Shown one piece after another: positions 6,801 through 57,637 of a stretch of DNA of 64,000 nt (its first letter is position 1; each line of letters begins with the position of its first letter). The notes below the pieces were generated by a model, which searched no databases, had not been told where the DNA came from, and saw nothing but the letters and a program-made list of their open reading frames with translations. Source of the stretch: a virus (lineage: Duplodnaviria; Caudoviricetes); the IMG/VR virus record IMGVR_UViG_3300021164_001199, positions 30,063 to 94,062 of that record; one strand, written 5' to 3'. A program made the translations under genes and the position numbers.

Positions 6801-9236
6801 AGAATATCTGACTTTAGTAGAGTAACTGCAGCTGATGTAGAAGACATTAAAAAGATTAAAGAGATTTTTGATGAGTATGAAGATATAACTGGTATAACTA
6901 AAGCTAAAGAAGAAGCTGCAAAAAAAGCTGCTGAGGCTGCTGCTAAAAAACTAGAAGAAGAAGCTGAAGCTGCTAGAGTAGCTGCAAAAGAAAAAGCTCT
7001 TGATATATATACTCCAGAAACTAAAGCTAAACTAGTAGCAGACTATGAAAACTATCCAGAGAAAGATACTGAATCTTTTGAAGAGTATTTAGAAACACCT
7101 AGAGCAGCAGTTATAATCTATAAGGAAAAACAAAAAGAACAACAACTAACTCCTGCTGAATTATTAGGTCAATTTATATCTGGTTTAGCTACAGATCAAG
7201 GATTAAAAATAATAGAAGCTAGTTTACTCAAATCAGGTAAATTTATTATTTCTAATATATCTAGAGCTACTTCAGAACAAAGACAAAAAATAGATTCAGA
7301 TATAGAAAAACTTAGAAATAAATATACTGAAAAGAATATTGTAACTAGAATAGAAAATGGTAATCTTATTATTGAAGTAGATATAAGACCAACACCTATT
7401 AATATAAATGAACCAACTCCAAAAACATTTCAAGAATTAAAAAGTGAAATAGAAAGACTAAGAGCAGAAGAAGAAACTAAGTATGCTGCTATGTCTGATC
7501 CTAATGATGCAGTAGCAAGAGCTAAAATTTATGAGGAGTATAATGTTTTAATAACTCCTTTAATAAAAGAAGCAGAAGCAGACATAAAAGCAAGAAAAGA
7601 AAAAGATATAAATTCAATATCAACAGATCCTATTAAGGAACCTTCTGAGTATAATGCTTATATATCTAAAATCAATGATATATATAATGCAGAACTAGAA
7701 TCTTTAAAGAAAAAAGAAACACCACAAACTAAAGTACAATCTTCTACAATAGAAGGTCAAGTAGGTACTTCTAATTATACTGTAGAAGAAGGATTAATCT
7801 TTTATGAAAATGAAGATGGATCTAGAAGACCAGTAGCTAATCCTGATGGTAGACCTATTTTAGATGTTATTAAATCTGATATAGAAAATAGAAGAAATGA
7901 AGAGTTAACAAAATATGATGAAGGAAAATTAACTAATACTGAAATAAAAGTTAATAATTATAAAGCTTATATACATTCAACCCCAACAAATGTTATTTTA
8001 AAAATAGGAGATAGATATGGAGAAATAATTTTTGAAGGTTCTGGTATTTATGGGTATAATCTTGAAAAACTTATAAATGCAGAAACAGGGAATACTATAG
8101 AGCAACAGCATAATGGAAGAGATGTAATACAATCTAAATATAATGAAGAACTAACTGCTTTAGAATCTGAACAACCTAAAAAAGAAGAGCCTGAAGTAAA
8201 AGAAGCATTTCCTTTATCTCCACAGTTTGAAGGTAAGATAATTTACTTCTCTCCAGGTTTAGGAAAAACTACATTAGTAAATCAGTATCCAGATCAGTTT
8301 GTAGATATGGATGTATTACTATATGAAGAATTTAAAGATGAACCTGGATTTGAAGATGCAACACCAGAAACTTTTGGTACAGCTATTTCTGCAATTTATA
8401 AAAATTTAAAAATTACTGGACAACCTGCTGAGGCATTTAATGTAATTAAAAATAAACTTTATGATAATGCATTTAAAAAAGCTAAAGAATTAACTAAGCA
8501 AGGTAAAACAGTATTAACAGGATCTGGTGCCTTTATTTCTAAAGCTGATTTTAGTGTAAAAGCTAATGATGAAAAAATATCTAAGGAACAGTTACTGAAT
8601 AAAAATCCAAATATGGATGAAATAGATCTTTCAGAAGCTTTAAGTGGTATAAGAAGAAATGAAAATAGAAACAATATATTATTATCTGTTGATAAAGATT
8701 CATTCATTCAATTCTTAATGGGTAACTACGATATTCTTAAATATATCAATGAAGATATAACATTTAAACAACTTGATGAATTAGGTAAATTTATGATGGC
8801 TCCATTATCTCCAGAAGTTATGGAAGCTTTTAGTAAAAAAATGGAATATTTTCAAGCTAGAGAATTATTATTTAGTAGCTTGCAGCCTGGTGACACAGTC
8901 ATTATATATAATGAAAAAACTGGTAAAAATTATACAACTAAAATAATGAATAAAAAAGATGCAAATAGTTATAATTTAGAAATTGTACCTGATGGAAGTT
9001 CATATCTAATGCGTAGTAATCTTCCCAACTTAATAAATGTCATACCAACACAAGGTACTAGTGAAGGTATTAAAATAGATGAAGTAGATAACTCAGATGC
9101 TGAAGATAATAAAACAAAAGTAAATGATGTTGCTACAGAAACAGAAAGATTAAAAGCTTTATTAAATGAATCATTCAATGATGATGATTTATTTGAAGAT
9201 GCTGAAGACCCTAATAATTGTAAAATTAAAAAGTAA
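3870..9236 (+). CDS. Giant virion cargo protein (1788 aa) with Gly/Ala-rich hydrophobic segments and a C-terminal P-loop kinase-like domain
   Basis: Hydrophobic GLAGLAGAPETGGASLGAAG segment. Walker A-like IIYFSPGLGKTT followed by FVDMD near 8240-8315. Its stop overlaps the vRNAP start (TAATG). Confidence 0.65.
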   Translation: MEDIFKDSNTVITPELNDFYSNSFLVKGNPADENVLPAPQVGGDNDDKANVRSLINKLNNISDLSKNNISNLQATYTDPLKDAKMFAFNPTYKGLNWDRYKSHSAFNELGFDPFRDNEKFYNDNTSIYSDITRGIQGFGKITASAFMNTAADLPRLLTGNWDPNTEAAKETERIMAETMSTRGTFGSSVINFGINAGFTVGIIGELIAEEMILGLAGLAGAPETGGASLGAAGYLMAVRAGLAGSKIAGLGKTTGALLKTIKNLDNAVDAKKYFNQFGRGAAEFLNPLQATTDLAKNFKNLNGLGQTARAAKSFGAFFKDIRDINRSFSEAKLEGGFVQNAMFEKLLNEAYANGKTPTPEEIDKIKEASLHAGYVNQMVNFPVIHYTNNIAFGNLVKPLNRLIGSTEDSIKILNKTITADITRKKVFQELAGGWKESLKRGFNPKLMAKNSLNYFSANLAEGLQESFQEASAIAIEDYYTKQFINENSIVRNQYELSILDSYGKGIGEQFSAQGAETFLSGFLMGGLMGRGGKIARKIGTGLNESSNKVKDLFYSKTDPEKYKEIKEKREIAKAEKEAKIKKYDEFRTNLINSLNDFYEDAGKMFSRDLAHMSAQEILDAKAKQAQETGDDKFLIDFTDASLFESVSNALYFGKFDLYLEHLDKIKSLDDQGLMEAMGIDDAQAGRQRLEVSIERAKEIKSRSKKFSENPYKYNDYKEGTDEYNEMVLMHNAFEDAKQSAIFTPYQFDRVLSRMNSIAESFSSIDLVANGNATEFLHLFGVDNILNEVEILDNEIQSLKDGTRENEALARRKEKQIKDLAEVRDAIIAHRAYFKALKETDTVDTSYEKNLKNAFIKYLGSYGENKSRILKSDKLDDAFKLFHDYYRLNIDAEYLSKSVAIVADPDFLRQESLRRYNALKKQYTNRKELIKKKWDTYLRKIGLNGVFQKLYEAGFAGDPEQMVAYNLSGGKTPVNLFYRISDFSRVTAADVEDIKKIKEIFDEYEDITGITKAKEEAAKKAAEAAAKKLEEEAEAARVAAKEKALDIYTPETKAKLVADYENYPEKDTESFEEYLETPRAAVIIYKEKQKEQQLTPAELLGQFISGLATDQGLKIIEASLLKSGKFIISNISRATSEQRQKIDSDIEKLRNKYTEKNIVTRIENGNLIIEVDIRPTPININEPTPKTFQELKSEIERLRAEEETKYAAMSDPNDAVARAKIYEEYNVLITPLIKEAEADIKARKEKDINSISTDPIKEPSEYNAYISKINDIYNAELESLKKKETPQTKVQSSTIEGQVGTSNYTVEEGLIFYENEDGSRRPVANPDGRPILDVIKSDIENRRNEELTKYDEGKLTNTEIKVNNYKAYIHSTPTNVILKIGDRYGEIIFEGSGIYGYNLEKLINAETGNTIEQQHNGRDVIQSKYNEELTALESEQPKKEEPEVKEAFPLSPQFEGKIIYFSPGLGKTTLVNQYPDQFVDMDVLLYEEFKDEPGFEDATPETFGTAISAIYKNLKITGQPAEAFNVIKNKLYDNAFKKAKELTKQGKTVLTGSGAFISKADFSVKANDEKISKEQLLNKNPNMDEIDLSEALSGIRRNENRNNILLSVDKDSFIQFLMGNYDILKYINEDITFKQLDELGKFMMAPLSPEVMEAFSKKMEYFQARELLFSSLQPGDTVIIYNEKTGKNYTTKIMNKKDANSYNLEIVPDGSSYLMRSNLPNLINVIPTQGTSEGIKIDEVDNSDAEDNKTKVNDVATETERLKALLNESFNDDDLFEDAEDPNNCKIKK

Positions 9237-12200
9237 TGGCTTGTCTTACACAAAAACAATTAGATAACATATTTAAATCAATTGGTAATTATTTTAAAAA
9301 TTTAAATGATCCAAAAGATTATAATCACTTAGAACATCTATTATATATTTATAATAAAGGTATATCTAGTGGAATGACACCAGCAACAGCTCTATCATAT
9401 GTGCAAGCTGTACCTAAACTAGTTCAAGCATATAAAGCTATAACTGGAATTAAATTAATTAAAGATGAAAATATTCAAGTAGCAAGACTTGAGTCTGATT
9501 TTGAAGATAATGATTTAAATTTTATTGCAGATACTTTAGAATTAACTAGTGAAAAAGAACCTGAAGAAATTACTGAAGTAACAACAGATGAGGTAGTTGC
9601 ACCTAAAGGTCAAACATTAAAAATATTTACTGCTAAGACAAATGATCCAACTTCTACTACTGGTCCTGATGAAAGAAAGGATGATGGTACTCAAAGTATA
9701 GATCCTAAGAAAACTTGGTACCACGGATTTACACGTAAACTTATTGCTAATGCTGTAAGTGGATTTGATGGTTCTACTATAACAATTAAAAATCATACTG
9801 GCTTTAAACTTAAAGCTATCAAAATGTCTGAGATTCCTTATGAGGAATTATATGATTTTCTAAAAACTCAAAGTTTATCTGAAGAGCAATTAAAAGCAAT
9901 ATTAGATAGAGACCAGATTGTAGCATTAGTAATTACTGATAATAATGGTAAAATATTAAAGTTTAATCAAGATTATGCAGTTGCACCTGATGGAAAGTTA
10001 ATATACTTTCAAATGAGAGATACTAACTATGATTTACTAGATGTTGTAGGAGCAAGAGGTGTAATTCAAAGTGTTGAAGAAATATCTAGTAATTTAAATA
10101 TATCTTATAAAGAAGCAGAAAGAAGAGTTAGAGAAGGTGTAAATAATTTAAGAGCAATCCAGAAAGGAGTATTTGAAAATAAAAATGTAATACTTGATAT
10201 TACTGGAGGCAGTCGTGGCTACTTACCTTTACTAGAAAAAAATATTAAACTGAATTATCAAACTGCTCCATCTACATTAGGTCAAGTAGTTGCTAATATG
10301 GATTACTTTGAAATTAGTTACAATACTACTGGTGGAACAACTAATAGATTTATTACTCTATATGGTAATACGATTAATTTATTTACACGTAAGGCAAATG
10401 ATGAAGAATTAAGTCTATTTAGTGATGCTGTTGTAGAAAACTTATTAAATTCTGATGATACTACTGTAGGTTTAGAATTCTTAAGTCAGTATTTAGCAAT
10501 GACTAATTCTAATAAGAATGAACTTAGAAAATTACTTGAAAGTATTAAAGAATCAAGAGATAAAGAAAATGGTGTAGATAGATTAAAAAAATATTTAAAA
10601 ACAGCAGGTTCTAATAAGAATGGTTTTTGGTTAACATACCAAAAAGAATTACCTGAATATTTTGGTATTAAGAATGGAGAACTTGCTATTATCAATAGAG
10701 AAGAGTATTATAATTTTTGGAAAGATGTTTTAAAAACAGCTTTACCATTAAATGATGATGATAAAGTACAATTGTTTAATTCATATTTAAATTTTGAAAT
10801 TGATAATAAAACTAAAGAAACTTTAGGATTAAGTAAATCTGAAGAACCTAAAATAGAAAAGAAAACTAGTGCTATTGTAGCAAATACAAATTTTGACATA
10901 GATTCTTTAATGAAAGAAAAAGGAATATCTTCTGAAGCTACAAAGAAACAAATTCAAGATGCTTTAGATTGGTATGAAAATAGTCCTTTAAAAAATGTAG
11001 TACCTGTTAATGTACTTTTTAATGTTTTAAATTCAAATTCAAAAGCTGTTTGGGAAAGATCAGGAATTACTTTATTTTTTGGTTCTAACTACACAGATTT
11101 ATATCATGAGGCTTGGCATGCTTTCTCTCAATTGTTTTTAACAATAGATGACAAACAAAAGTTATATGCTGAAATTGGAAAAATGTCTGGAACATTTGCT
11201 TTACCAGGTGGTGGTAGAATTAAATATTCAGATGCAAAACCAGTTCAAATAGAAGAGTTATTAGCTGAAGACTTTAGACAATATAGATTATCTAATGGTA
11301 CAAAAGTATTTGGGCAAAGACCAGTGACTAATAGAATCTTTTCTCAAATTTTAAAGTTATTAAATTGGTTATTTGATAAAGTTTCATATCAACAAACACA
11401 AACAGATTTTAATTCATTAAAGAATGTAAAAACATTATATGATAAATTATATCTAGGTAACTTCATAGATATGAAACCTGATGCTAAAAATATCATGTTT
11501 GGTTCATTAGCATCTCCTATAGGTTCAGTAGAAAATGGTACTCAATTAACTATTACTCAATCAAATGAAATAGCAGATACAATGGATGCTATTATATCTG
11601 ATGTATTAGAAAATATTGCAAAAGAAACTGGTAAAGTTATTATTGGTAACTTTTTAAATTCTAAGAATTCAATTAAATATGTTTATGGTAAAATAAAAGA
11701 AGCTTTTGAAAAAAGAGTAGTTGAATTAAGTGAAGATGTAGTAGCCAATGAGTATGCTATAAACTTATTAAATATTGCTATAACTGACTTTGGAAATATA
11801 GATGATACAATAGATAACAAGAAATTAAATGATAGCACAACTATATCGTATCACCTTAGAAGATCTAAGATATTAGATTTTAAAACTAAAACTTTAGATG
11901 ATAATGATGAAAAAACTGTTGACTTAGATACACATATTAAAAAAGAATTAGCTGATAATGGTGAACTATCTTTTGAAGAACTAGCAAATGAAAGAGTATT
12001 ATTTCTTATTAAAACATTAAAACAATATGATTCTAATGGTAATGTAGAAATGAATGACTTAGGCTTTCCTAAACTTGTTAAATTCAACAAAGTATTAGGA
12101 ATTCTAATTAGAGAACTTAATAATAACTCAGGGCCTAAATCTATTAAAGCTAAACTAGAAGCATTGAGAGATAATGGTCAACATGAAATTGGTGAACTAT

Positions 12201-15200
12201 TAATTAAACTAGGTGATTTAGATTTAGTAAAAGAAGATGATAAAGCAGATATCATGAATGCTTGGATCTTATTTGCTAATAGTTTTAATACAACATCACT
12301 ACCATTAATTATTACAAGATTAGAACAAACTACAAATAGAGATGAAAATACATTTGAATATTCTTTATATAACACTCAAGGTAAATTAGATTTATCAAAT
12401 ACTAAAAGAAAGTTTATTCAAGAGTTTTCTATAAATAGATTAAATAGATTCACTTCAGAATTTGAAGGATTAAAAGTTATTGATAAAAATAAACTAGAGA
12501 ACTTCAATATACAAGAATATAATAACTTACAATTTGGAGATCCTAAAAAATTCAATAAGGCTGTATTATTCTATAATGCTATTGGTATTCCAGTAGGTAA
12601 ATCTGAACAATACAAAGAATTACTAAGTAATAAAACTGTATTAGAAGGAGTAACTTATATCTATAACATGCTTATGGAATATAAGAGTAAAGGAAAGAAT
12701 AGTGACTTTATTCCAGATCATATAAACTATTTAACTAAATCAAAAGAAGGTAATCAGTCTAATGTAATTGATACAGTTATCCAAGCATATCTTAAAGTAG
12801 AAGATATAGTTAGTACATTTAGTTTACTAAATGCTGAAGGTAATAGGCAATATGAGAATGTTCTTAATAATACAATTACTATTACAAAGAATGGACTTAA
12901 TGATGTAAATACATTTCAGGAATTTTATAGTAAACCTGAGTTTGCACATTTTAATCCTGCAATAAATCCAATGGTTAGAAACTCTCAAGTATTAAAAAAA
13001 TTATTTGGAGAAGATTTAACTGGTAGAATAGATACCTTAAACTTAAGTAATTACTCTGGTATACAGTTAGATAAAGATGGTGTGAATATAAACTCAGTTT
13101 CTATTACAGAAACAGATACAGCTACAAAATTTTACATTGATTTATATTCTTATATCAATAATGGTTATGTGGAACTACCAAGACATGCTGATAAGAAAAT
13201 GGCATTAGCATATCATACTTCTAAAAATCCACATTTTATTACACCTACTTCATATTATCAAAGTCCTGAGTTATCAGATGACAAGTTTTTTAAAATCATG
13301 TTTGGTTATTTAAAAGCAGAGCATGAAAGAGTTCAGGATATTAGAAACAATACTATTAGTGATTTAGATTATTTTCCAGAGTTTAAAAATCAAGGAAAAG
13401 AGTTCTTGATATTCCATGACATCTTAACTCCTGAATTAAAAAATAAACTATATGATACTTCTATAGAAGAATTAGCTGCCTTAAATTCTGATACTCAATT
13501 ACATAAAGAAATTAAAGATAGAATAGTAGCATACTTATCAAATCTAACTTCTAAAAATAAAGTTGTATTTGATGAAATGAATTATTTAGATGCTGACTCA
13601 ATTAAAAAATTAATTAAACCAGGGTTTGTTAATCAAGGATTGAGTAATGACGAAAAAGCAAATAGACTAGTTAGAGCTTATAGTGCTAACTCATTCATAT
13701 CATTTGTAGAATCTACCATATTATTCTATGGTGACATAGCTGCATATAACTTATTAAAAGAAGAATTTCATAAACGTAATGCTTCTGCAGGTTCTACAGG
13801 TAGAACATTTATTAGTGATCCTGAATTTCTATATGCATATAAAAAACATTTTGGTAATAAGTATGCTAACAAACAAGGATATAAATCTTATGGTGTTGCA
13901 GATAATGGTGTTTTAAGAACAGCTGTATTTGATGATATACAAGTGCAAAATGATGATTTAATAAAAGAATATAAAATACTATTTGAAAAACAATATACTA
14001 AAGATTATACAGCATTTGGATTAACTGGTAAAGCTTTAACAGATAAAGTAGAAGCAGAAGTAAAAAAATCAATTGCTAAATATTTTGAAAAAGAAATTAA
14101 AGAAGGTGATGGTCAAGGTTGGTTAACTTTTGATGCTTATAGAATGCTGGCAAAGCTTTCTAATGAGTGGTCTCCAGCTCAAGAGGAACTATACAATAAA
14201 ATTGTAGAAGGTAAAGATATAGGTATAAATGAGATAGTTAAAAACTTTCCTCCTAGGAAATATCAATACTATGGTCCAATTGTAACAGAAAAGTATCATT
14301 TAAATGCTCTTCATAAGTTTTCATTAATGCCACTTATACCTAGTGTTATTAAGGATACAAATCTTGCACAGATACATGAAAGAATGATGAACAGTAATGT
14401 TCAATATGCTACATTTAAATCTGGTTCCAAAACTGCTACAAGAACATATGAAAATGGAAAATCTGATCAATTTTATACAGATTTATCAGTTAGAAAAGCA
14501 ATGCCTAAAGATGCTGCATTATTAATTAATGAGATCAATATTAAATATTTACGTAATCAAGTATCTATTAATGATGAATTCAAAGAAGAAGTAGTATTCT
14601 CTACTCAAATGAGAAAATTAATCATTAATGAGTTATTTGAAAAAGGTATTCCATTAAATGCTAATGTAGAAGAACTAGTAAAATCTTACTTAAGAAATAT
14701 TGAAAGATATATTGAATTTAATAAACAAGAGTTAAGAGATGAAATAGAACTTAAAAGTGATGGTAAGTTTAATGCAGAATCTTTAGCTAAGATTATTAAA
14801 ATTGAAATGTCTAGAAGAGATTTTCCTGAACACTTGCAAGATACTGTAACTAAAATTGAAAATGGAAATTTTGCTTATGACTTATCCTATGCATTAAATG
14901 CTGAAGACATTGAAAAGATTTTATTCTCAATTGTAAATAAAAGAATTGTAAGAAGAAAAGTAAATGGTGAACCATTAATTCAAGCTGCTGTATCTGGTTT
15001 TGAAAGTGAAAGACCTGACTTAACTAATGCTACTGAAGAAGACTTAGTTAAATATAGAGCTGATGAACTTAAATTCTATAGAGTAGATCCAGTAACTGGT
15101 AAAACATTACCAATGCAAGTTAAAATTGCATTACAAGGAAAGTTTAAAAAACTATTATATTTAGAACATAATGGTCAAGTAATTGGGACTAGAGATAATT

Positions 15201-18200
15201 TAAATAAAGCATTAAAAGATTCTGAATGGATGAAAGTACATGGTAAAATGGTTACCCTTGTGGGTGTACGTATTCCAGTTCAAGGATTTAATTCAATGGA
15301 AATGATGGAAGTTGCAGAATTCTTAGATGAATCTGCAGGTAACATTGTAGTTGCTCCAACACAGATTGTATCTAAATCAGGTGGTGACTTTGATATTGAT
15401 AAGTTATCTATATTCTTTCCTAATATTGAAAAAGTTGGTAATAAAATATTCTTATCAAGATATGATAGATCAATCAAAGAATCAACAGGTGAATTAAAAG
15501 GTAAAATTTCTGATTTAAAGAAAAGAATAAAAGAAATTAAAGGTGATTCACAAAAAGAATTTGAAAATCTTAAGAAACAAAAACAATTTAGTAAACTTGA
15601 AAATACTGAAAAACAGTTAATTAATCAATTGTATGAAAACTACAATAGACTACTTGCAGAGAACAATAATTTAATAGAACTTTGGTCAAAAGAATCTGCT
15701 AATACTAGAAAAGGTAAAATTTTATCTAATGAAATTGATGAACTAAAAAATATTTCTATTTCATTTGAAGATAAATTCCAAGAGTTAACTTTAGCAGAAG
15801 CTGAATTAAAACAAAATTTAAAAGTATACTATGGTGCCTTTTATGAAGATAAGCAACAAAAATTCTGGGATACTCAAGATGTAAAATTACAAGTTGTATT
15901 TGATGAAATGAATATCATTAAGGAGAAATTAATTAATTCTTCTAATAGTGCATATGAAAATGATATTACTCAAGACATTATAAATATTCTTTCAGCTCCT
16001 GAAATTGCTGCAGCATTAGTTAGACCTAATGATACTGACTTAGTACAGCCATTATCTAAAGACATGCTTAAGTATTTTGCTAAGTCATATAATCCAAAAG
16101 AAAATTTTAATACAGATCCTTCAATAATGGAATTTGTTGATGATCTAGAAACTAATCCTGAAAAGAAAAATAAAATAAGACCTGTATCACCTACTAGAAT
16201 ATTTGAAACAAGATATAATATTTATAAACAATACTCTAACTCAGTTGGTAAAAGAGCTTTAGGTATAGGTGCCGTAGATAATGCTTATAATGCACTATTC
16301 AATCAAGTTGGTTTGTACCTAAATGATGAATATGAACATGTCAGAACTGATAAAAAAACAGGTAAGGATATAACTCAAATAAGAAAGAATAGATTACTAT
16401 TAAGTCATAACAAAATGAATAATGGTAAAATATCTTTATCTAATATATTCAATACAGAAGGAACTAAAATATCTGATTTAATTAATCAGTTGATCAATGG
16501 TTGGGTAGATGTTGCTAAAGATCCTTGGATTGCTTATGTAATGGGTACTCCTGAAGCATCACCATCTTTATTATACTTAGTACAAGCTGGTGTACCATTT
16601 AAACAAGCTGTATACTTCCTAGCTAATCCATTAGTAAGACAATACTTTGATACTCTTAAGAAAATGGAAAGCCCATTAGCTGCTTTAAGTCAATCAATTG
16701 AGGAAAATGATTATGGTGATCCTATAATAAAATCTAAATTACCTGAAAATGAATTTAGACTTAAAGCTGAAATGTTAGGTTATGGTAAATCAGATTATCC
16801 AAATGGTCATCAGTTATATGATAGGATTCAAGACTATACAAAAGGATTTGAAAATATAACAGAAAAAGAACTATTTGATAGATTAGAGGCTAGTATACAA
16901 CCAGGTTGGTCACGTAATGAAACAGACATGGCTGTATTAGCGCACTTCATAGAAATACTTGATGTAGCAAAAGGACTATTTAAAATTAAATCATCTCTAA
17001 ACTTTGATACTAAGACATCTGCTACAATGTATGATGCTTATGCAAGAAGTCAAAAAAGAGATTTAATTGTTAGTGATAATGAAGATGAGGTAAATATTCT
17101 TAAGATATTTCCAAAGCATAAGTTAAAAGCATTATATGAAGATACTATTCTTCACAACTTTGATGTGAGTGACATGCAAATGGAAATGTTTAAAGATTTA
17201 TATGGTGTTAGAAATAATCCTAATTTAAATAAATATTTATACGAATTCTATAAGAATAGTTTAATATTTGGAAGTAATATATTTGATAGAGTAAAACAAA
17301 TTTTTGGTGGAAATGATAAAATGATTTCTGAATTCAAAAATGATTTTACTACAGCTATTACTTTATCTGCTCTAAGAGATATTGGTGTTACAGAAACTAT
17401 GTACAAAGGATATGAAGTTGTACAAGTTAATAGTAAAGAATATGAAAAAGTTATAAATAAAAAAGTAAATAAATCTTTACCTACTGATAAATTATATTTT
17501 GCTAAAAATAATTATACTAAAGATACTCCAGAGAAATATCCAAAGTATGGTTTTATTTTTACTGAGAATGCAGAAAAACTAGGTACTAATTATAATGTAT
17601 CAACAACTCAAGCAGTTATTAGAACTAATAAAAAAGGAGAAAGAAATCCTAATGCATTAGCTATTGTAACTAAGAAAATGCAGAAAGCTGGGGCTAACTT
17701 TACAAATTCTGAAGCAGATTTTAATCAGTTTAAAGAACTTAATACTAAGTTGATTAATGACATAGTTGATTCTAAGTTTGAAAGAATTATAGTTCCTACT
17801 GGTGGATTTGCAATGGAAAAAGCACAACTACCTACAAGGTTTGCAGAATGGTTACAGAATGAATTGCAAACTAAATTAGGTATTGCTACAGAATTAGTTG
17901 ATAGAGGAACTGGAATGAGTGGCTTAACTAACTCTAAAAAATATGAAGAACCTACTACTCAACAATCTACCAATCCACTAGTAGAAGCAGGAATTAAACC
18001 TACTGATATGTATGGTAATGCTGCTAAAGATATCCAGATGGCATCTGAATCTACTCAGTTTATTGGATTTGGTACTATAATGAAAGAAGGTAATGTATCT
18101 TCTACAGATAAATATGCTAAAGCTTGGGGTAACAAAGCTAATACTGGAGAATATACTGCTAATGATATAATTATGGTATCTGGTAGTGGTAACTTTGGTA

Positions 18201-21200
18201 GAGGTGGTGTGGATAAAACAGAAGAAGCAGCAGCAATTAAAAAAACATTATCTGAAAAATATAAACCTTTATTATTAAAAGCTATAGAAGCTGGTGCCTC
18301 TTTTAGAATTGGTAACCAATATGCTAAAGGTAATTTATCTGATGAAACTGTTGCTAAATTTTTACAACAAAAAGGATATACTGAAGAAAAACTTAATGGA
18401 TATTCTAGATGGAATGCTCCTGTTAAACCAAAGGGAGAAAAAGTTGCGGATGGTATATATGTAAATCAAGAAGGTTTATCACCACAAGAAGAACTTGAAT
18501 TATTTGAACTTATTAGACCAGTACTAGAAGAACAAGCTGTTAAAAGTAATGCAGGTAAGAATGCTCCAAAAATGGCAGGTCTAGGTCTTAACTGGGATTA
18601 TGTTAATGGAGTGACTAAAAGAAGAGATAATGGATTTGAAAAAATTGATATACAAGATCCTTTAAGAAAGAATAGTGCATATGGGTGGTTTACATCTTCA
18701 TCTACTGGTGAGAAATTAGGTTCTATATCTAAAAGAATGGTAGAGTTAATGAGTAAAGCTACTGGTATAGATGTTACTGATTATGATGGTTCTATTATAA
18801 ATATTTATAATTCAGATAGTTTTATTGGTAATCATCCTGATATTGATGAAAGTAAAACAGCAGAAAAATATCCTGTTGTTGTTGTTAATATAGGAGGTCC
18901 AGGAAATATTGTATTAGGTAGTGATAAGGTAAATTTAAAATCAGGAGCAGGTTATGTATTTGGTGTTGATGGTAAAAATAGAACCATATCTCATTCTACT
19001 TACGCATCACCTATTAAAGGTACATTACCAGCTATAACTACTGCTATGGATGGTGAAACATTAAAAGCTGGTTCTTATAGAGTTTCAATTACAATGAGAA
19101 GAGTCATGCCTTTAAAGAAAGGAATGCCTGAATCTCCAAAAGTTATTTCTAAAAAACCATCTACTAGTGCTAATGAATTTGATATAGCAGATAAATTAAC
19201 ACCTATAGAACAAAACTTTAAAGATGGTTCAGGTGGTAGACAAATGCAACCACAGTTTAAAGGTAAATCTACTATGGATCTTATTATGTCAGGAGATAGA
19301 ACTAGAACTACTAGAGCTAAGACTGATGTTGGAAGAATGTTGAAAGACTATAACCTTTCTAAAATTGAAGATCTTGTTGGTAAAATTATACGCATGACAG
19401 ATAATACAGGTAAACAAGTCTATACTAGAATTACTAAAGTTGCTCCATTTACACAAGAATATCAAGATTCTACATGGAAAAAAGAAGGCTGGGAAAAGTC
19501 TGTAACAGATAAACTTGTTGGACAGTATCCTTATGCTATAGAGTTTGAAGTAGTAAATAAACCTACTCAATCATCTACTAGTACTAATATTGGACCAGAA
19601 ACTATAATTAATGTATATTCTAAAGATAAAAATGGATTTGAAGATTTGAGCAATTTTGCTGAAAGATCTGTTAAGCTTGGTAATGAAACTTTTAGAACTC
19701 CTGAAGGTGCTTATCAAGCTATGAAAATTTGGTTTACAAATGCTGCTTTATTACGTACACCTATTAGTAAAGAAAATCTTGAAATATTAGAAAAATTAAA
19801 AACAGCTTCAGGTCTAGAAGCAAAAGCTTTAGGAAATAATATTACAGATTTATCTAAAGACACCTGGGATAGAGATTCATCAGGTGTAATGAAAAATATT
19901 TTAACACTTTCATTTCAACAAAATTCTAAAGCTTTAGATAAACTTCTTTCTACTGGTAATGCTACTCTAACTCATACTCAAGATAAAACTAAGTGGAAAA
20001 CTGAATTTCCTAAATTATTAATGGAAGTTAGAAATGAACTTAGAGGTGAACAACCTAAAGTTAATGAGCCAGTTGAAGTAGAACAAGTTCCCACTAAGGG
20101 AACTAATATACCAGGATATATTCCTACAGGAGTATTTATTCAAGATGATAAAATGTATGTTGATAAAGATACATTATATGAACAATTTGAAACTCAAGAA
20201 TATTCTACCAATAATACACAAGCATATGGAACTATTATAACAACTCCTGAAGGTGGTAAATTCTATTTACAAAAAGTAAGTCCAAGGACTTTCAATGATA
20301 ACTTTAGTGAGTATGTAAAGTTTGTAATGGAAAGAGAATATCAGAGAAGTGTATTAAAAGCTTCAGACATAACCAATTTTGATGAACTACTTAAAACAAC
20401 TACTGCTAAATTAATAACTCCTAAAAAAGTACAAATTAATATTGCTGAATTACAAAATAAACTTAAAACAGATGTGGCATTTGTAGGTAATAAATATGGA
20501 CTAGAAGATTTAGTAGACGTATATTCTGGTGAAGTGATTTATGATAATTTGAAGCCTGGCTTTAGAAAACCAGGAATTTATGAACAATATACAATAACTG
20601 AAGAAAGAGGGTCTGCTGTAAAATATAAAATAATTGAAAGTTATTTAACTAATAAAGCATTAAAGAATATTCTTAATTCTTATTCTTATATGCAGGATCC
20701 AGAGAATTCATATGCCAGACAATTATTAGATTTAGTAAAAAAATATAAGTTAGCAAAAGACTATAGTCTTCTTGATGCATTGACACTTAATAAGTCTAAT
20801 GGTAATGACATCTTTAATTTAGTATTTAAAGAAGGTAAACCTGATTCTAATACTATAGATAACTATATTGATGAATTAATGAGACTATCTAATCCTGATG
20901 TTGAAAAACATCCAGATATACATATTAATAAAGAGATTTCTGAATTCTTTGATAAATTTCAATATTATGTATTGTTATCTAGTGGATTTAGTTCAGGTAA
21001 CAAATATTCATTAAATTCTATTATATCTCAAGAAAAGATATTAAACTATACTAATTCAGATGCAATTAAAAAAGCAACTAATAGAATTTTAAATGATTCA
21101 GATTATTATGGTAAAGTTGAAAAAACTTTAAATATTTTTACTGATAAGTTTTTAAGACATAGGTTAGGTATTATTGTAAATCCAAGATCTAAAATAGTTA

Positions 21201-21799
21201 CTAATATTGCAGGATTTTCAATTGATAATTCTAATAGAATTAAAAAGTATATATCTCAAGGTATATCTAAACCTGTAACAGAATATCCTAATGTAGATAT
21301 TTTTGATGATACTCTGAAAAAAGTAAATGATTCATTATATTTAATTGATCTAGATTTAATAAGACAACAAGGAAATCAAGCTGCTTTATCTGGTGATAAA
21401 AAATATTTTACTAATGCAGTTTTAAAATTAGCTGAGACACATGATGATAAATTGTTTATTTTTACAGCAGCTGATCAAATTCCAGTAACTGTTAAAGCAA
21501 GTAATATATCAATCTTTAATACACCAGAACAAATTAGAAATGCTGAATTTGAAGGACCTATTATTTTATCAAGCAAAGGATTAAAAGGAAAAACTGATGT
21601 TGGAACTGCTATGTTATCTGAAGCACTATTTGAAAAATATAGAATTAAAAATCCTGGATTTCAAAAAGGAATTGCCAAACTTACTATTCGTGAAATGATG
21701 AATAGTGACTCTTTTATAACATCAATAGATGTAATTGATAGTATTAGATTAAAATCTCATGCTATATTAGACGAATTAAATAACTCTTGTAATATATAA
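9236..21799 (+). CDS. Virion-packaged two-barrel DNA-dependent RNA polymerase (crAss-like, phi14:2 gp66 type) with zincin and accessory domains
   Basis: RIPVQG...GGDFDIDK catalytic DxDxD (15386-15400). DGQGW motif. HEAWH...EELLAEDF zincin motif (from 11105). 4187 aa. Confidence 0.9.
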   Translation: MACLTQKQLDNIFKSIGNYFKNLNDPKDYNHLEHLLYIYNKGISSGMTPATALSYVQAVPKLVQAYKAITGIKLIKDENIQVARLESDFEDNDLNFIADTLELTSEKEPEEITEVTTDEVVAPKGQTLKIFTAKTNDPTSTTGPDERKDDGTQSIDPKKTWYHGFTRKLIANAVSGFDGSTITIKNHTGFKLKAIKMSEIPYEELYDFLKTQSLSEEQLKAILDRDQIVALVITDNNGKILKFNQDYAVAPDGKLIYFQMRDTNYDLLDVVGARGVIQSVEEISSNLNISYKEAERRVREGVNNLRAIQKGVFENKNVILDITGGSRGYLPLLEKNIKLNYQTAPSTLGQVVANMDYFEISYNTTGGTTNRFITLYGNTINLFTRKANDEELSLFSDAVVENLLNSDDTTVGLEFLSQYLAMTNSNKNELRKLLESIKESRDKENGVDRLKKYLKTAGSNKNGFWLTYQKELPEYFGIKNGELAIINREEYYNFWKDVLKTALPLNDDDKVQLFNSYLNFEIDNKTKETLGLSKSEEPKIEKKTSAIVANTNFDIDSLMKEKGISSEATKKQIQDALDWYENSPLKNVVPVNVLFNVLNSNSKAVWERSGITLFFGSNYTDLYHEAWHAFSQLFLTIDDKQKLYAEIGKMSGTFALPGGGRIKYSDAKPVQIEELLAEDFRQYRLSNGTKVFGQRPVTNRIFSQILKLLNWLFDKVSYQQTQTDFNSLKNVKTLYDKLYLGNFIDMKPDAKNIMFGSLASPIGSVENGTQLTITQSNEIADTMDAIISDVLENIAKETGKVIIGNFLNSKNSIKYVYGKIKEAFEKRVVELSEDVVANEYAINLLNIAITDFGNIDDTIDNKKLNDSTTISYHLRRSKILDFKTKTLDDNDEKTVDLDTHIKKELADNGELSFEELANERVLFLIKTLKQYDSNGNVEMNDLGFPKLVKFNKVLGILIRELNNNSGPKSIKAKLEALRDNGQHEIGELLIKLGDLDLVKEDDKADIMNAWILFANSFNTTSLPLIITRLEQTTNRDENTFEYSLYNTQGKLDLSNTKRKFIQEFSINRLNRFTSEFEGLKVIDKNKLENFNIQEYNNLQFGDPKKFNKAVLFYNAIGIPVGKSEQYKELLSNKTVLEGVTYIYNMLMEYKSKGKNSDFIPDHINYLTKSKEGNQSNVIDTVIQAYLKVEDIVSTFSLLNAEGNRQYENVLNNTITITKNGLNDVNTFQEFYSKPEFAHFNPAINPMVRNSQVLKKLFGEDLTGRIDTLNLSNYSGIQLDKDGVNINSVSITETDTATKFYIDLYSYINNGYVELPRHADKKMALAYHTSKNPHFITPTSYYQSPELSDDKFFKIMFGYLKAEHERVQDIRNNTISDLDYFPEFKNQGKEFLIFHDILTPELKNKLYDTSIEELAALNSDTQLHKEIKDRIVAYLSNLTSKNKVVFDEMNYLDADSIKKLIKPGFVNQGLSNDEKANRLVRAYSANSFISFVESTILFYGDIAAYNLLKEEFHKRNASAGSTGRTFISDPEFLYAYKKHFGNKYANKQGYKSYGVADNGVLRTAVFDDIQVQNDDLIKEYKILFEKQYTKDYTAFGLTGKALTDKVEAEVKKSIAKYFEKEIKEGDGQGWLTFDAYRMLAKLSNEWSPAQEELYNKIVEGKDIGINEIVKNFPPRKYQYYGPIVTEKYHLNALHKFSLMPLIPSVIKDTNLAQIHERMMNSNVQYATFKSGSKTATRTYENGKSDQFYTDLSVRKAMPKDAALLINEINIKYLRNQVSINDEFKEEVVFSTQMRKLIINELFEKGIPLNANVEELVKSYLRNIERYIEFNKQELRDEIELKSDGKFNAESLAKIIKIEMSRRDFPEHLQDTVTKIENGNFAYDLSYALNAEDIEKILFSIVNKRIVRRKVNGEPLIQAAVSGFESERPDLTNATEEDLVKYRADELKFYRVDPVTGKTLPMQVKIALQGKFKKLLYLEHNGQVIGTRDNLNKALKDSEWMKVHGKMVTLVGVRIPVQGFNSMEMMEVAEFLDESAGNIVVAPTQIVSKSGGDFDIDKLSIFFPNIEKVGNKIFLSRYDRSIKESTGELKGKISDLKKRIKEIKGDSQKEFENLKKQKQFSKLENTEKQLINQLYENYNRLLAENNNLIELWSKESANTRKGKILSNEIDELKNISISFEDKFQELTLAEAELKQNLKVYYGAFYEDKQQKFWDTQDVKLQVVFDEMNIIKEKLINSSNSAYENDITQDIINILSAPEIAAALVRPNDTDLVQPLSKDMLKYFAKSYNPKENFNTDPSIMEFVDDLETNPEKKNKIRPVSPTRIFETRYNIYKQYSNSVGKRALGIGAVDNAYNALFNQVGLYLNDEYEHVRTDKKTGKDITQIRKNRLLLSHNKMNNGKISLSNIFNTEGTKISDLINQLINGWVDVAKDPWIAYVMGTPEASPSLLYLVQAGVPFKQAVYFLANPLVRQYFDTLKKMESPLAALSQSIEENDYGDPIIKSKLPENEFRLKAEMLGYGKSDYPNGHQLYDRIQDYTKGFENITEKELFDRLEASIQPGWSRNETDMAVLAHFIEILDVAKGLFKIKSSLNFDTKTSATMYDAYARSQKRDLIVSDNEDEVNILKIFPKHKLKALYEDTILHNFDVSDMQMEMFKDLYGVRNNPNLNKYLYEFYKNSLIFGSNIFDRVKQIFGGNDKMISEFKNDFTTAITLSALRDIGVTETMYKGYEVVQVNSKEYEKVINKKVNKSLPTDKLYFAKNNYTKDTPEKYPKYGFIFTENAEKLGTNYNVSTTQAVIRTNKKGERNPNALAIVTKKMQKAGANFTNSEADFNQFKELNTKLINDIVDSKFERIIVPTGGFAMEKAQLPTRFAEWLQNELQTKLGIATELVDRGTGMSGLTNSKKYEEPTTQQSTNPLVEAGIKPTDMYGNAAKDIQMASESTQFIGFGTIMKEGNVSSTDKYAKAWGNKANTGEYTANDIIMVSGSGNFGRGGVDKTEEAAAIKKTLSEKYKPLLLKAIEAGASFRIGNQYAKGNLSDETVAKFLQQKGYTEEKLNGYSRWNAPVKPKGEKVADGIYVNQEGLSPQEELELFELIRPVLEEQAVKSNAGKNAPKMAGLGLNWDYVNGVTKRRDNGFEKIDIQDPLRKNSAYGWFTSSSTGEKLGSISKRMVELMSKATGIDVTDYDGSIINIYNSDSFIGNHPDIDESKTAEKYPVVVVNIGGPGNIVLGSDKVNLKSGAGYVFGVDGKNRTISHSTYASPIKGTLPAITTAMDGETLKAGSYRVSITMRRVMPLKKGMPESPKVISKKPSTSANEFDIADKLTPIEQNFKDGSGGRQMQPQFKGKSTMDLIMSGDRTRTTRAKTDVGRMLKDYNLSKIEDLVGKIIRMTDNTGKQVYTRITKVAPFTQEYQDSTWKKEGWEKSVTDKLVGQYPYAIEFEVVNKPTQSSTSTNIGPETIINVYSKDKNGFEDLSNFAERSVKLGNETFRTPEGAYQAMKIWFTNAALLRTPISKENLEILEKLKTASGLEAKALGNNITDLSKDTWDRDSSGVMKNILTLSFQQNSKALDKLLSTGNATLTHTQDKTKWKTEFPKLLMEVRNELRGEQPKVNEPVEVEQVPTKGTNIPGYIPTGVFIQDDKMYVDKDTLYEQFETQEYSTNNTQAYGTIITTPEGGKFYLQKVSPRTFNDNFSEYVKFVMEREYQRSVLKASDITNFDELLKTTTAKLITPKKVQINIAELQNKLKTDVAFVGNKYGLEDLVDVYSGEVIYDNLKPGFRKPGIYEQYTITEERGSAVKYKIIESYLTNKALKNILNSYSYMQDPENSYARQLLDLVKKYKLAKDYSLLDALTLNKSNGNDIFNLVFKEGKPDSNTIDNYIDELMRLSNPDVEKHPDIHINKEISEFFDKFQYYVLLSSGFSSGNKYSLNSIISQEKILNYTNSDAIKKATNRILNDSDYYGKVEKTLNIFTDKFLRHRLGIIVNPRSKIVTNIAGFSIDNSNRIKKYISQGISKPVTEYPNVDIFDDTLKKVNDSLYLIDLDLIRQQGNQAALSGDKKYFTNAVLKLAETHDDKLFIFTAADQIPVTVKASNISIFNTPEQIRNAEFEGPIILSSKGLKGKTDVGTAMLSEALFEKYRIKNPGFQKGIAKLTIREMMNSDSFITSIDVIDSIRLKSHAILDELNNSCNI
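18430..19110 (+). other. AlkB-like 2OG-Fe(II) dioxygenase domain inside the vRNAP ORF
   Basis: IINIY...IGNHPD (HxD, 18833-18841)...VVVVNIG...H...YRVSITMRR matches the AlkB-family layout. Boundaries are approximate. Confidence 0.8.
19190..19555 (+). other. ASCH/PUA-like domain inside the vRNAP ORF
   Basis: MDLIMSGDRTRTTR (GxKT/RxTxR)...TRITKV...KEGW...AIEFEVV. Boundaries are approximate. Confidence 0.75.
19600..20047 (+). other. NADAR (YbiA-like) domain inside the vRNAP ORF
   Basis: LSNF...FRTPEGAYQAMK...AKALG...WD...M...SFQQN...LLSTGNATL...LMEVRNEL. Boundaries are approximate. Confidence 0.85.
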
Positions 21800-21801
21800 T
21801 T

Positions 21802-24800
21802 ATGGCTTGCAAAATAATTAGAAATGAAGATGGTACTGTAGATAGAGTACTTGCTGATAATAATGAACGTTCAATTCTCTATAATCAAATTAGAGAAACA
21901 ACAACTGAAGAACAAGCCTTATTAGATTATTCTGGAACGTTTACAGAAGAGTTTAAAAATGTAATTGAATCATTTAAAAACTCAGAAGATAGTACTAACA
22001 TATATGATGAGAATGGAGAAGTCCAGTATTACATATATGATTATATTATGCATCCTGAAAAGTTCTTTGGTCAAAATAATGTAGTTAATACTAAATTTCA
22101 AAAAGATAGAAATAATAATTTAAGAATTGCTGGATTATCTTATTTAGTAGGCACTTTAGAAATGCTTTCTGTGAAATTTGGATTATCTTATGAAGTTATT
22201 TTTGATGAAAGTAATCCTAACAAAGGATATATAGATGTAATATCTTATGGTAAACCCACTATTATAATAAATGCTTCTAAAGCTTCACATGACACTCCTT
22301 TACATGAGTATGGTCATATTTTTATAAATCTTATTAAATTATCCAATAAAAACTTATATTCAAATTTAGTAAAAGAAATATTAAATACAGAAATAGGTAA
22401 AAAAGAATTATCCGATGTTAAAAATTATTATTCAAATTATACTTTAGAAGAACAAATTGAAGAAACAATAGTTGAACTATTAGGCAGATATGCTAGAAAT
22501 GAGTTTGATCCTGAATCAGGTATACATAAAACAATTAAAAAAATATGGAATACTATATTAGAATTTTTATCTAAGACATTCAATGTTGAAATTAAAGATA
22601 TTTCTCCAAACATGTCAATTGAACAACTTTCTAAACTTTTAAGTAATCCTAATGTAAACTTTAATCAAAAATCTTTCATAGAACAAAATTTAGAAACTAT
22701 TAAGAATACTAACATTAAAAATAAAGAAAGATTAGAAAATGAATATACCGATTTTAAAAAGATTAATAATCCATCATTAATAAGAGAAAATGGTTATACG
22801 TTAATTATAAACAAAAATGAGTTTGATATATTTAAAAAGGAAATAGAAACTACCATCAATAGTATAAAAGAATATAGTAAAAGTCAACTATTAATAGATA
22901 TTAATAATATTAAATCTGAAATTACAACTTTTCAAGAAAGAAACAATTTTGATTACAGTAGATATCCTATGTTTACTAAAATTTTAAAATTTTTTCATCC
23001 AACTCCAAACACTGCATTATATGTATTAGATAGAGAAATACAAAATGGAAATTTAGATAATGAAATTAAAGATAATTTAAAATTTTTAGATAAATCACTA
23101 ACTGAAATAACACAAGATGTATTATCTGGATATATGATAAGTGATCAATTAGGAATAAAAATTCCAGATTTTTATAAAATGTCATCTTATACATTTAGCA
23201 GTTTTAATTCTGTTGAAGAAATTGAAAATAGTTTTATAGATAAACTTTCTGAATTGAATAAAATAATTCAAAATCCTGAAAAATCTGACTCTTATTATGA
23301 TCGTAGTTTTAAATTTTCAACAGAAACTGATACATATAAAGTATATGGAAAATTTAAAGATGGAAATATAAGTATTAGTTTTAGTTCTGATAAGTATGGA
23401 ATGAAAGATGTGAATAATAGTCTTTTTTTCAAAATTCTTCCTAAAGTTATAGATTCAATTTCTTATATGTTTTCAGATTTAGAATATAACACTATATCAT
23501 TTACTCCCGTTTCTGGAGAATCATCTAAAGGTAGAGATTTAAGGCTTAAAGGATATAATATTTTTGCTAAAAGACTTTTTGGACAATTTAGTTTAGTAGC
23601 AGAAAATGATAATACTACTATTATTCCTATTCCTGAAATGTTTAAAAATCAAATACATATAAAAGAAAATATGTATCAGAAAGACAGGACTGATATACCT
23701 GTTATACAATCAGCCCAGTTTAATCAAATACAAAATGATACTAATGAAAATATTGCAGTTGAAGTATTAAATAAAATTGCAAATAGAATATCTAAAAATC
23801 TAAATGGGGTGCCTTATAATAGTATTGAAGAAGCTGATGCTGTATCTTTGTTAGCTTCTACTAAAGAGAAATATACTGGTCAACCAGCATTCTTTTATAA
23901 TGGTCAAGTATACTTTATAAAAGATAAATTAAACTTAGAAAACTTATTCCATGAATTTAGTCACCCTTTCATTAAGGCTATTAAGAAAACAAACCCTGGT
24001 CTTTTTAATAAATTATATGACAATCTTATTCAAACAGAAGAAGGTCAAAAACTTAAAGATCTAGTTAAAGAATATTATAACCATGATGAAAATTCTGAAG
24101 AGTTTAAAGAAGAAATGCTAGTAAGAGCATTAACTACTAGAGCTAGAAATAATGAATTAAAAGTTCAAGAGAGTTCTGGTTTTGATAAGTTAATGAATCA
24201 ATTGTGGTATGCTGTTAAACAAATAATACGTAAGATATTTGGTAAGGTTAAAATAGACAAGTTAAATGAGAATACAACTCTAGATGAACTTGTAAAAATG
24301 CTTAATAATGAATCTTTTGAAATTAGTGCAAAAGATATTACAGATTCAGAAAGAGCAGATTTTAATAATCTAAAAAAAGAGTCAGTTAAAGAACTAATAT
24401 CTAAAGCTAATGCTACATTAGTTCAAAGTAATATTGACAAATTATTTAAATTAATAAGGTCTGGTCAACAAGTTTTAGAACAAGGTGAAACAAACTATCC
24501 TGGCTTAGAAGAAAGTATTTCAAAAGAAAAATTAGATAGTCCTTTTCAAGAAGAATACAATGCAATATCTAGATATCAAACATATACTAAAACTAATGAA
24601 GAACCTTTAGATTTAGTAAACTATAGAGAAAAACAAATTGAAGGTTTAGTTTTATCTATAGAAGCTTATAATGACTCTATTGAAAAAATAATTCTTGAAA
24701 TTAATAGATTAAAATCAGATCCCAATTCAATTGTAACTATTTCTAAAAATATGTATTTCTTGAAAATACTTAAACAAACTTTACAAACGTTTGTGGAATT

Positions 24801-56142: not shown

Positions 56143-57221
56143 AATATTTGAATTTTAGTTTGATCAAAATCTAATAATGAGTCACTTACCCATTTTTCAT
56201 CAATAGTATTCCTATAACATAATATATGAATTTCTGATGTTTCTTCTGGATTTAGTCTTAAAAGCCTACCTATTCTTTGAGATGATTTTCTATTATTACC
56301 ATATGCATGCAATATGATACCACGTTTAAGTTCAGGTATAGTAATACCTTCACTAAGTTGTAGTACACATGATAGTTGCATAATTTTACCTGACTTAAAA
56401 TCTACAAGGTTTTTTTCTGCGTTTGATTTTCCAGAGTAATAGCTAGTCTTGCAGATTGAATCAGCTTGTTTTTTGGTATTAGCAAATACAATAGTTTTAG
56501 AAGTACTTTTATCAAGAAATTTTTTAGCATAATTGGTTTTAGAAGCAAATGTTTGTAAAGCCCTCATTCTCATAATACTAATATTCTGTATTGCAAGTTT
56601 GTTGGGTCTTGGATTATTAATTGCCTCAGATAATTTATTAGACCAAAATTTATAAATAATTTCTTCTGAAGCATAACCTTTACCAAATTTAGTATTCTTA
56701 GACTTATCTAAATCTATATTATGTATATAGATTTTATAGTCATTTAGAATTTTATTATCTACAGCAAAGGATACATCTTTAGTATATACTACTGGACAGA
56801 AACTGGATATTAAATCATGCTTAACTTTATCCCTACTTGTTGGTGGTGTACCTGTTAATCCAAGTATAGAACCTGAATAACTATTTAACCATTCTTTATG
56901 TGTAGGTAATAAGTTATGACACTCATCAAGATATATTTTCTGATAACCTAAAGACTTCTTAGATAAAGATCTATAAGTAGTAAAAGTTATATGTTCCAAT
57001 AAATGATCTAGTCCAAATCTATTAGCATCATCAATCCAAGACTTATAAATTGATACTTTAGGTGCTACAACTAAGAATGAACTGTATTCAGTAAAGTTAT
57101 GAGCCATATCAAGTAATCCAAGTAATGTTTTACCCAGGCCCATTGACATAACTACAGTACATCTATTATGTTTCTTTATTACATCTAAAGCTTCTTTTTG
57201 TATTTCATCTTTTTGAATCAT
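56136..57221 (-). CDS. Superfamily 2 (DExH) helicase
   Basis: MGLGKT, LDECH, GLTGT, LSEGI.IP, QRIGRLLR. Confidence 0.9.
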   Translation of the reverse strand: MIQKDEIQKEALDVIKKHNRCTVVMSMGLGKTLLGLLDMAHNFTEYSSFLVVAPKVSIYKSWIDDANRFGLDHLLEHITFTTYRSLSKKSLGYQKIYLDECHNLLPTHKEWLNSYSGSILGLTGTPPTSRDKVKHDLISSFCPVVYTKDVSFAVDNKILNDYKIYIHNIDLDKSKNTKFGKGYASEEIIYKFWSNKLSEAINNPRPNKLAIQNISIMRMRALQTFASKTNYAKKFLDKSTSKTIVFANTKKQADSICKTSYYSGKSNAEKNLVDFKSGKIMQLSCVLQLSEGITIPELKRGIILHAYGNNRKSSQRIGRLLRLNPEETSEIHILCYRNTIDEKWVSDSLLDFDQTKIQILC

Positions 57222-57637
57222 AATCTATTTTCTGATAAGCCTAATTCTTTAGCTTCTATTGGATGTAATTCAATGTATGTGTGGCAAACTCTGCAAACAG
57301 CAATCCAAGTTGATATATCAAGTAGAAAGGGACCACGCCCTTTTTTATGATGAATATCAGTTGCCTGAATAGTACAGATTGGTAGTCTAGCCTCACAAGT
57401 AGAATGTTTGGTTATATAATCAATTCTTAATTTACAATATAAGTTTTCAAGAGCTGCTAATTTAGTTGATTTTGATTTAAGTTTTACTATTTTTTTTGTT
57501 GTTGTAGAAATTGGTTTATTTTCTTTTTGCCAACAAGCTTTACAGTACTTACTTCCTTCAAAATTCTTCCAAATTAGCTTCTCTTGATTACACTTATTAC
57601 ATAGCTTTTTCTTAGCTGTTATCATCAGTTGTTTCAA
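57218..57637 (-). CDS. Zn-finger/HNH-like nuclease
   Basis: CNKC...CKAC, then CE....C...ATDIHHKKGR...VCRVCH. Confidence 0.7.
   Translation of the reverse strand: MKQLMITAKKKLCNKCNQEKLIWKNFEGSKYCKACWQKENKPISTTTKKIVKLKSKSTKLAALENLYCKLRIDYITKHSTCEARLPICTIQATDIHHKKGRGPFLLDISTWIAVCRVCHTYIELHPIEAKELGLSENRL

Follow-up and report, generated by a model that had tools for sequence, protein, structure and literature searches.

How crassviruses, and phages with giant polymerases generally, move megadalton protein cargo through a channel only a few nanometers wide is an open question, as both the 2023 atlas of phage crAss001 (PMC10172136) and a 2026 paper on phage N4 acknowledge. Here we describe a block of three giant genes that bears on it, in a 64,000-nt stretch—the window—of a Crassvirales-type phage (IMGVR_UViG_3300021164_001199). 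The genes specify a virion RNA polymerase and its two neighbors, P1 and P3, and the few cysteines (Cys) of these proteins lie only at the ends that face each other.

The nearest described systems are the cargo blocks of the crassviruses phi14:2 (gp67–gp66–gp65) and crAss001 (gp47/gp50/gp49), whose products have been found in virions by mass spectrometry (bioRxiv 10.1101/2020.03.07.982082; PMC10172136). These resemble the window in the block itself, in the giant sizes of the proteins, in a middle polymerase with a DFDxD motif, and in the rule of terminal cysteines. They differ in that the window polymerase is about twice as long (approximately double the length of phi14:2 gp66), holds a zincin-like module, Z1, along with extra enzyme domains, and is broken from P1 at another place. 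In some crassvirus lineages the cargo block is fused into polyproteins. Neither the crAss001 atlas nor the phi14:2 preprint mentions these cysteines or a link between the three proteins.

Schitoviridae offer the second comparison. N4 (gp50, gp51, gp52) and DEV (gp71–gp73) likewise eject giant virion RNA polymerases and their partner proteins, probably in unfolded form, and these proteins are almost free of Cys. For Schitoviridae ejection proteins the published Cys frequency is 0.00075% versus 0.865%, a suppression attributed to passage through the periplasm (PMC11445570); in N4 itself we count none in the 4,294 amino acids (aa) of gp50, gp51 and gp52, versus 1.4% in the DNA polymerase. Depletion of Cys from ejected proteins is already known, then, but the retention of exactly the junction cysteines is particular to crassviruses: N4-like phages keep zero, and a single-chain polymerase of unrelated fold, whereas crassviruses keep one on each side of the junction. 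The terminal cysteines of crassvirus cargo are not mentioned in the N4 and DEV papers, and full-text searches of the literature found no mention of them.

Cysteines at the facing ends of the cargo proteins

The three genes lie on the + strand, end to end. P1 (3870..9236), the first link in the chain, has 1788 aa and, as its only Cys, residue 1784, which is fifth from the end (codon 9219..9221, +). The polymerase (9236..21799), the middle link, has 4187 aa and two, at residue 3 (9242..9244, +) and at residue 4185, third from the end (21788..21790, +). P3 (21802..28959), the last link, has 2385 aa and again just one, at residue 3 (21808..21810, +). Junction 1, the break between P1 and polymerase, therefore has a Cys on its C side and another on its N side, and so does junction 2, the break between polymerase and P3. 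The preliminary description of this DNA had counted these residues by eye; a script count bears out every number and position, the sum of 8,360 aa, the lack of any internal Cys in the three proteins, and the Cys-free outer ends (the N-end of P1 and the C-end of P3). The pattern in the window is as it had been described: four cysteines in all, each 3 to 5 residues from a facing end.

Four is very few. The remaining open reading frames (ORFs) of the window hold 150 Cys in 9,952 aa, or 1.51%, versus 0.05% in the three giants, and at the former rate about 126 would be expected in 8,360 aa. Were four cysteines placed uniformly, each of the four 5-residue junction windows would receive one with a probability of ~3e-12. 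In their strong depletion relative to the other proteins of the same phage, the three giants behave like Schitoviridae ejection proteins; in the complete lack of conserved Cys that marks the latter they do not, for the four terminal cysteines are conserved throughout the order. Before each C-terminal Cys, an acidic stretch and Asn-Asn had also been noted. Both occur at both junctions, with the qualification that in the polymerase a Ser stands between Asn-Asn and Cys. The acidic stretch generalizes: the segment that precedes the C-side Cys is amphipathic, and 21.8% Asp+Glu versus 14.3% overall.

Orthologous cargo sets were surveyed as the preliminary description had proposed, and the terminal cysteines prove to be conserved across Crassvirales. 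IMG/VR relatives at 56–74% identity keep all four, and the junction-2 pair persists in a relative at 28% identity; the C-terminal Cys of P1 is kept in two relatives (L001, L002). Among relatives that are ~60% identical overall, the last 30 residues of the polymerase are nearly invariant. In phi14:2, the last residue of g067 is its only Cys; g066 carries two, at 3 and at 2179 of 2180, and g065 one, at 3. The pattern is kept as well in crAss001, with Cys2339 in gp47, Cys5 and Cys2404 in gp50 and Cys5 in gp49, and in cr106_1 and cr85_1, in all of which the P1 gene is inverted and lies beyond P3. In 15 genomes with readable whole chains, a Cys stands within 6 residues of the end in 36 of 38 junction-facing ends, and within 75 residues in none of the 30 outer ends (facing versus outer, Fisher 2.8e-17). 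When the first 300 residues of P3 from 10 diverse crassviruses are aligned, the Cys is the sole invariant column.

Wider samples agree. At junction 2 of Suoliviridae, the C-side Cys is within 6 residues of the end in 26 of 30 distinct junction types (78 contigs), a sample in which one search pattern held the downstream Cys, so that the upstream side alone is unbiased. At junction 1 of Intestiviridae, searched with a query that excluded the tail, Cys is second from the end of P1 in 13/13 junction types, and in 11 of these 13 the next ORF, read from its first ATG, has a Cys at position 3 or 5, the start not being settled in the remaining two (p-crAssphage-like and cr110_1-like). A search with a Cys-free polymerase core, against 1.84 billion cluster representatives, yielded 1,890 hits, and among the best 150 of these, 134 were at least 2,900 aa long and began with Met. 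Within these 134 clusters, the C-end Cys falls in the last 9 residues in 133 and in the last 6 in 120; the N-end Cys falls in the first 9 in 125 and in the first 6 in 123. Exactly two cysteines are present in 97, and non-terminal ones make up 63 of the 306 found in 484,689 aa.

Both junctions in the window are compact stop/start overlaps, and both downstream proteins begin Met-Ala-Cys, features that might suggest a DNA-level constraint at coupled stop-start junctions, an annotation artefact, or simple chance. The comparative data refute this family of explanations. Chance is at odds with the probability from the window alone. The pattern is retained across very different tail sequences and spacings, and where P1 is encoded on the opposite strand, well away from the start of the polymerase; it is therefore not an effect of coupled stop-start DNA. 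With P1 genes inverted in some phages, we rejected an artefact of stop-start coupling. The Cys rule, to judge from these comparisons, is real, order-wide and junction-specific.

Two further candidates may be set apart here. Lipobox-type lipidation of the terminal Cys was considered and rejected; there is no signal peptide. And certain membrane-type cargo proteins of Intestiviridae have a Cys 6–12 residues from the C-end, followed by Gly-Gly (L008 gp48 and gp47, L014 gp30, L016:2035-2841, L188:814-3192), while in p-crAssphage gp47 the Cys is second from the end. No facing N-side Cys was seen for these membrane-type proteins, and theirs may be a different link.

Cysteine pairs follow gene breaks

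The position of the breaks varies between lineages, and the pairs vary with it. In Suoliviridae, P1 and polymerase are a single gene, and the junction-2 pair alone is present; in Intestiviridae, polymerase and P3 are a single gene, and the junction-1 pair alone is present. Where P3 is split in two (L182, L183, L184), the fresh junction bears a fresh pair. A lone giant protein of 3,840 aa, with no giant neighbors, has zero Cys (L185:10001-21523, a crAss-like contig with a muzzle protein upstream).

Two polymerase genes are interrupted without any Cys at the interruption. In cr108_1 (MT774385) the break is a group I intron (RF00028, 80 bits; L011:22168-22486); GenBank lists the two parts of this polymerase as separate hypothetical proteins. 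In another contig (L191, 13930-14015), an A6 run marks the end of the polymerase ORF, and a PIF1/AAA_30 helicase ORF carries on in a different frame, with no Cys on either side; the helicase ORF then ends in a Cys that faces a Met-Thr-Cys start. The second frame is open across the overlap, and by this reading of the sequence the break results from a frameshift, whether a programmed one or an error of assembly.

The break can also move. In the window, P1 and polymerase part ~620 aa before Z1 (HExxH at polymerase residue 624; 11105..11119, +), so that Z1 is inside the polymerase ORF, whereas in crAss001 and p-crAssphage Z1 belongs to P1, which runs on for ~185 and 214 aa past it, respectively. 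In all four lineages compared, Z1 and DFDxD are 1,427–1,667 aa apart, and Z1 is probably homologous across lineages (BLASTP E 3e-5; hhalign probability 89.5%, E 2e-6). Because Z1 is placed differently relative to the break in the window and in crAss001, it is the position of the break that differs in the window lineage. Fusions, intron, extra splits, the Cys-less frameshift break and the moved break all tell the same story: facing-end cysteines are gained and lost together, with the break. The comparisons thus say that a Cys pair follows the gene break, and not a domain.

In several lineages, each of the two junctions has zincin-like HExxH modules no more than a few hundred residues away, and this raises the thought that the cysteines mark protein ends for a step that leaves no lasting link—recognition by a packaging or ejection factor, redox sensing, or a zincin ‘cysteine switch’. 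We give this little credence. A cysteine switch calls for a single Cys for each zinc rather than a Cys on either side of every break, and phi14:2 g067 and g066 lack HExxH but have the junction-1 pair nonetheless. The extra junctions in L182–L184 bear pairs as well, and a generic end signal would be expected on the outer ends, too.

The same facts bear on the idea that each terminal Cys bonds, not to the neighboring cargo protein, but to another copy of its own protein or to a structural protein of the portal, inner capsid or tail, instead. Virions of crAss001 do hold several inter-subunit disulfides, in tail and portal-vertex proteins, and the cargo proteins are unresolved in the crAss001 maps (PMC10172136), so that partners of this kind could be imagined. 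The idea leaves much unexplained, however: the absence of Cys from all 30 outer ends, the equal numbers of N-side and C-side cysteines, their joint loss where genes are fused or where a break is repaired in the RNA, and the gain of one of each at a new split. We consider it unlikely, although a little less so than the end marks just discussed. Heterotypic, N-to-C pairing in a linear chain fits better than homodimers or anchoring to the shell, because N- and C-side cysteines are equal in number, outer ends are empty, and the two sides appear and disappear together.

The rule is regular enough to predict. It foretold two mis-called gene starts, as well as a single TGA, in frame and aligned with Trp. 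One protein (P0007) appeared to lack its Cys, but its frame extends upstream through a TGA (Trp in homologs) to a Met-Val-Cys start that directly follows the upstream stop. In L190, a start six codons upstream yields Met-Glu-Cys, and in L189 a frameshift splits off the Cys-bearing first 148 residues. Corrected gene starts, a flagged recoded TGA, an intron and frameshifts have come of the rule so far, and it can serve as an annotation aid.

Some individual annotations deserve a remark in this connection. In L184 (9929-10000) the in-frame TGA stands ten codons past Met-Val-Cys, the gene caller’s start is 24 codons late, and the TGA is either read as Trp or a sequencing error. The GenBank starts of crAss002 gp33 (L014:14896) and cr110_1 gp40 (L016:14062) are probably too far upstream; in both, a later ATG would start the protein with Met-Ser-Cys, the start that cr107_1 has in its annotation.

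A possible head-to-tail link

Conservation of the rule, and its co-variation with gene breaks, can be read from the genomes directly; from them we infer a physical link, and with it a chemistry, a timing and a purpose. The cargo block might be regarded as, in effect, one long polyprotein that different lineages have cut into genes at different places. Selection has purged nearly all of its cysteines, as from the ejected proteins of N4-like phages, and retained exactly one on each side of every break; each facing pair would join a protein by its C-end to the N-end of its successor. We lean, by a small measure, toward head-to-tail links of this kind, most simply disulfides, that turn the split polyprotein into a single thread.

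The disulfides would form after the particle leaves the reducing cytoplasm, and the separately made proteins would then act as one linear thread of ~8,360 residues. With Cys 1 to 6 residues from the end, the joint would be hardly thicker than an unbroken chain, and a narrow tail channel could let it through; in the cytoplasm of the host, reduction of the joints would release the proteins. That the cargo proteins are covalently rejoined after assembly into one unfolded chain, in fixed order and in 1:1:1 proportion, to be cut by host reductants, is a more tentative proposal, which we hold to be possible but a little less than probable. Comparative tests favor in part the tether suggested in the preliminary description, whose disulfide or metal link, use in packaging, ordered threading and release by reduction are suppositions. 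Threading ‘in gene order’ is incidental to it: the P1 gene is inverted in crAss001, cr106_1 and cr85_1.

A disulfide is the simplest link to suppose, because the residues that flank the cysteines vary freely, no second ligand is conserved, and Cys is never seen replaced. The facing cysteines might bind a shared metal ion instead—bridging Zn, Fe or Cu—rather than each other. The logic of pairing would be identical, such that the conservation data support both equally; some Suoliviridae tails have a His beside the Cys, and an anoxic habitat would be no obstacle to a metal bridge. But two thiolates alone make a poor site, the flanking positions supply no further conserved ligand, and replacement of Cys by His or Asp is never seen at the junction ends. 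Only 7 of 133 polymerase clusters (from the best 150 of 1,890 hits) have a His in the neighborhood of the C-terminal Cys, which argues against a His-assisted site. On these grounds a metal bridge is improbable. Protein ligation, by thioester-type chemistry that would remake a true polyprotein, is far more so. The geometry alone, with a Cys near a C-end facing a Cys near an N-end, speaks for ligation; against it, the N-side Cys is at position 3 to 6 and not at the very N-terminus, spacing is variable on both sides, and Pfam and PHROG scans found no intein-like or ligase domain.

Disulfides between separately made proteins have precedents in virions, including the inter-subunit disulfides of crAss001 tail and portal-vertex proteins. 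Those of the crAss001 tail hub, ring and portal vertex (PMC10172136), and of siphovirus tail tubes (PMC13576161), likewise join their proteins after assembly. They staple a rigid and symmetric shell or tube, whereas the proposed cargo links would join unlike proteins that are ejected, and would have to reopen in the host. Viral polyproteins and the ‘polyvalent’ injected proteins of phages, among them the fused blocks of Suoliviridae and Intestiviridae, share with the window a collinear order of domains; the chain would bring back what the fused blocks have through peptide bonds, but the link in the window would be post-translational, reversible, and between separate gene products.

Several points weigh against a disulfide-linked thread. 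The bond is deduced from sequence. Disulfides form poorly in the reducing cytoplasm, the site of particle assembly, and the habitat of gut crassviruses is anoxic. The disulfides of crAss001, moreover, were seen in virions purified aerobically (PMC10172136). Gut lineages tolerate up to 15 internal cysteines, and two C-side ends depart from the rule, the Cys being 9 residues from the end in crAss001 gp50 and 50 from it in cr273_1. The N-ends of crAss002 and cr110_1 were taken at the ATG that gives a Cys, which is circular for those two, the sister genome cr107_1 being annotated with the same ATG. And the sequences surveyed are often related, so that the counts are not of independent events.

Structure prediction does not help at present. 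Single-chain AlphaFold2 models of the polymerase C-end and the P3 N-end have a mean predicted local distance difference test score (pLDDT) of 61 and 48, respectively, too poor to serve as evidence; in them, the last 43 residues of the polymerase are a detached helix (pLDDT <50) and the start of P3 is a weak hairpin. No thioredoxin-like CxxC protein was found in the window. The only CxxC ORF on its replication side (57218-57625, −) is of 135 aa, and has 9 Cys and three CxxC motifs.

Other features of the cargo block and what the rule may mean

Sequence comparison identifies the three genes as the RNA-polymerase cargo block of a crAss-like phage. By tblastn the window polymerase matches the polymerase genes of 84 phage records, mostly of crassviruses, among them crAss001 gp50 (3e-8), phi14:2 g066 (4e-7) and p-crAssphage gp44. 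Its catalytic DFDxD motif is at residue 2051 (15386..15400, +). P1 and P3 are placed as are phi14:2 g067 and g065, and P1 has the pattern of crAss001 gp47, also. The block occupies the + strand from 1111 to 28959, with the replication genes on the opposite strand, a layout as in phi14:2. By analogy with the phi14:2 and crAss001 proteins, the three giants are probably packed in the head and injected.

Database matches to the proteins themselves are sparse. P1 and P3 matched no Pfam or PHROG family, PHROG matches for the polymerase were limited to two families of unknown function, and phmmer found nothing for the polymerase core among PDB sequences. The DNA of the junctions had no match among phage records. 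p-crAssphage gp45 gave no significant BLASTP match to crAss001 gp49 or gp47, which leaves orthology of the flanking proteins between families tentative. Modules of the Z1 type, with HExxH, are present in cargo blocks and matched no Pfam or PHROG family. P3 has HExxH motifs of its own at residues 168 and 717 (22303-22317 and 23950-23964), again with no Pfam family matched.

Between the catalytic core and junction 2, the polymerase carries a C-terminal extension (17507..19981, +) with Pfam matches to DUF7831, 2OG-Fe(II) oxygenase and NADAR. The NADAR match (36.1 bits) is above the Pfam cut-off; the other two are below theirs. These matches—the oxygenase is AlkB-like—may represent domains for de-modification or counter-defense that are injected with the polymerase. 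Upstream of P1, a protein of 918 aa (1111-3867) has two cysteines five residues apart (128 and 133) and no others; similarly close pairs occur in crAss001 gp45 (390, 398) and phi14:2 g069 (369, 378).

If the tether is real, a conserved end-to-end link would explain both the order in which crassviruses deliver their cargo and its stoichiometry. It would explain how the gene block has been free to fuse and to split in the course of evolution, and why Cys has been purged from everywhere else in the proteins. The idea can be tested directly, in the cultured phages phi14:2 and crAss001. Were it to hold, the phage order most abundant in the human gut would throughout be using a ‘polyprotein made after translation’ that redox chemistry can cleave.

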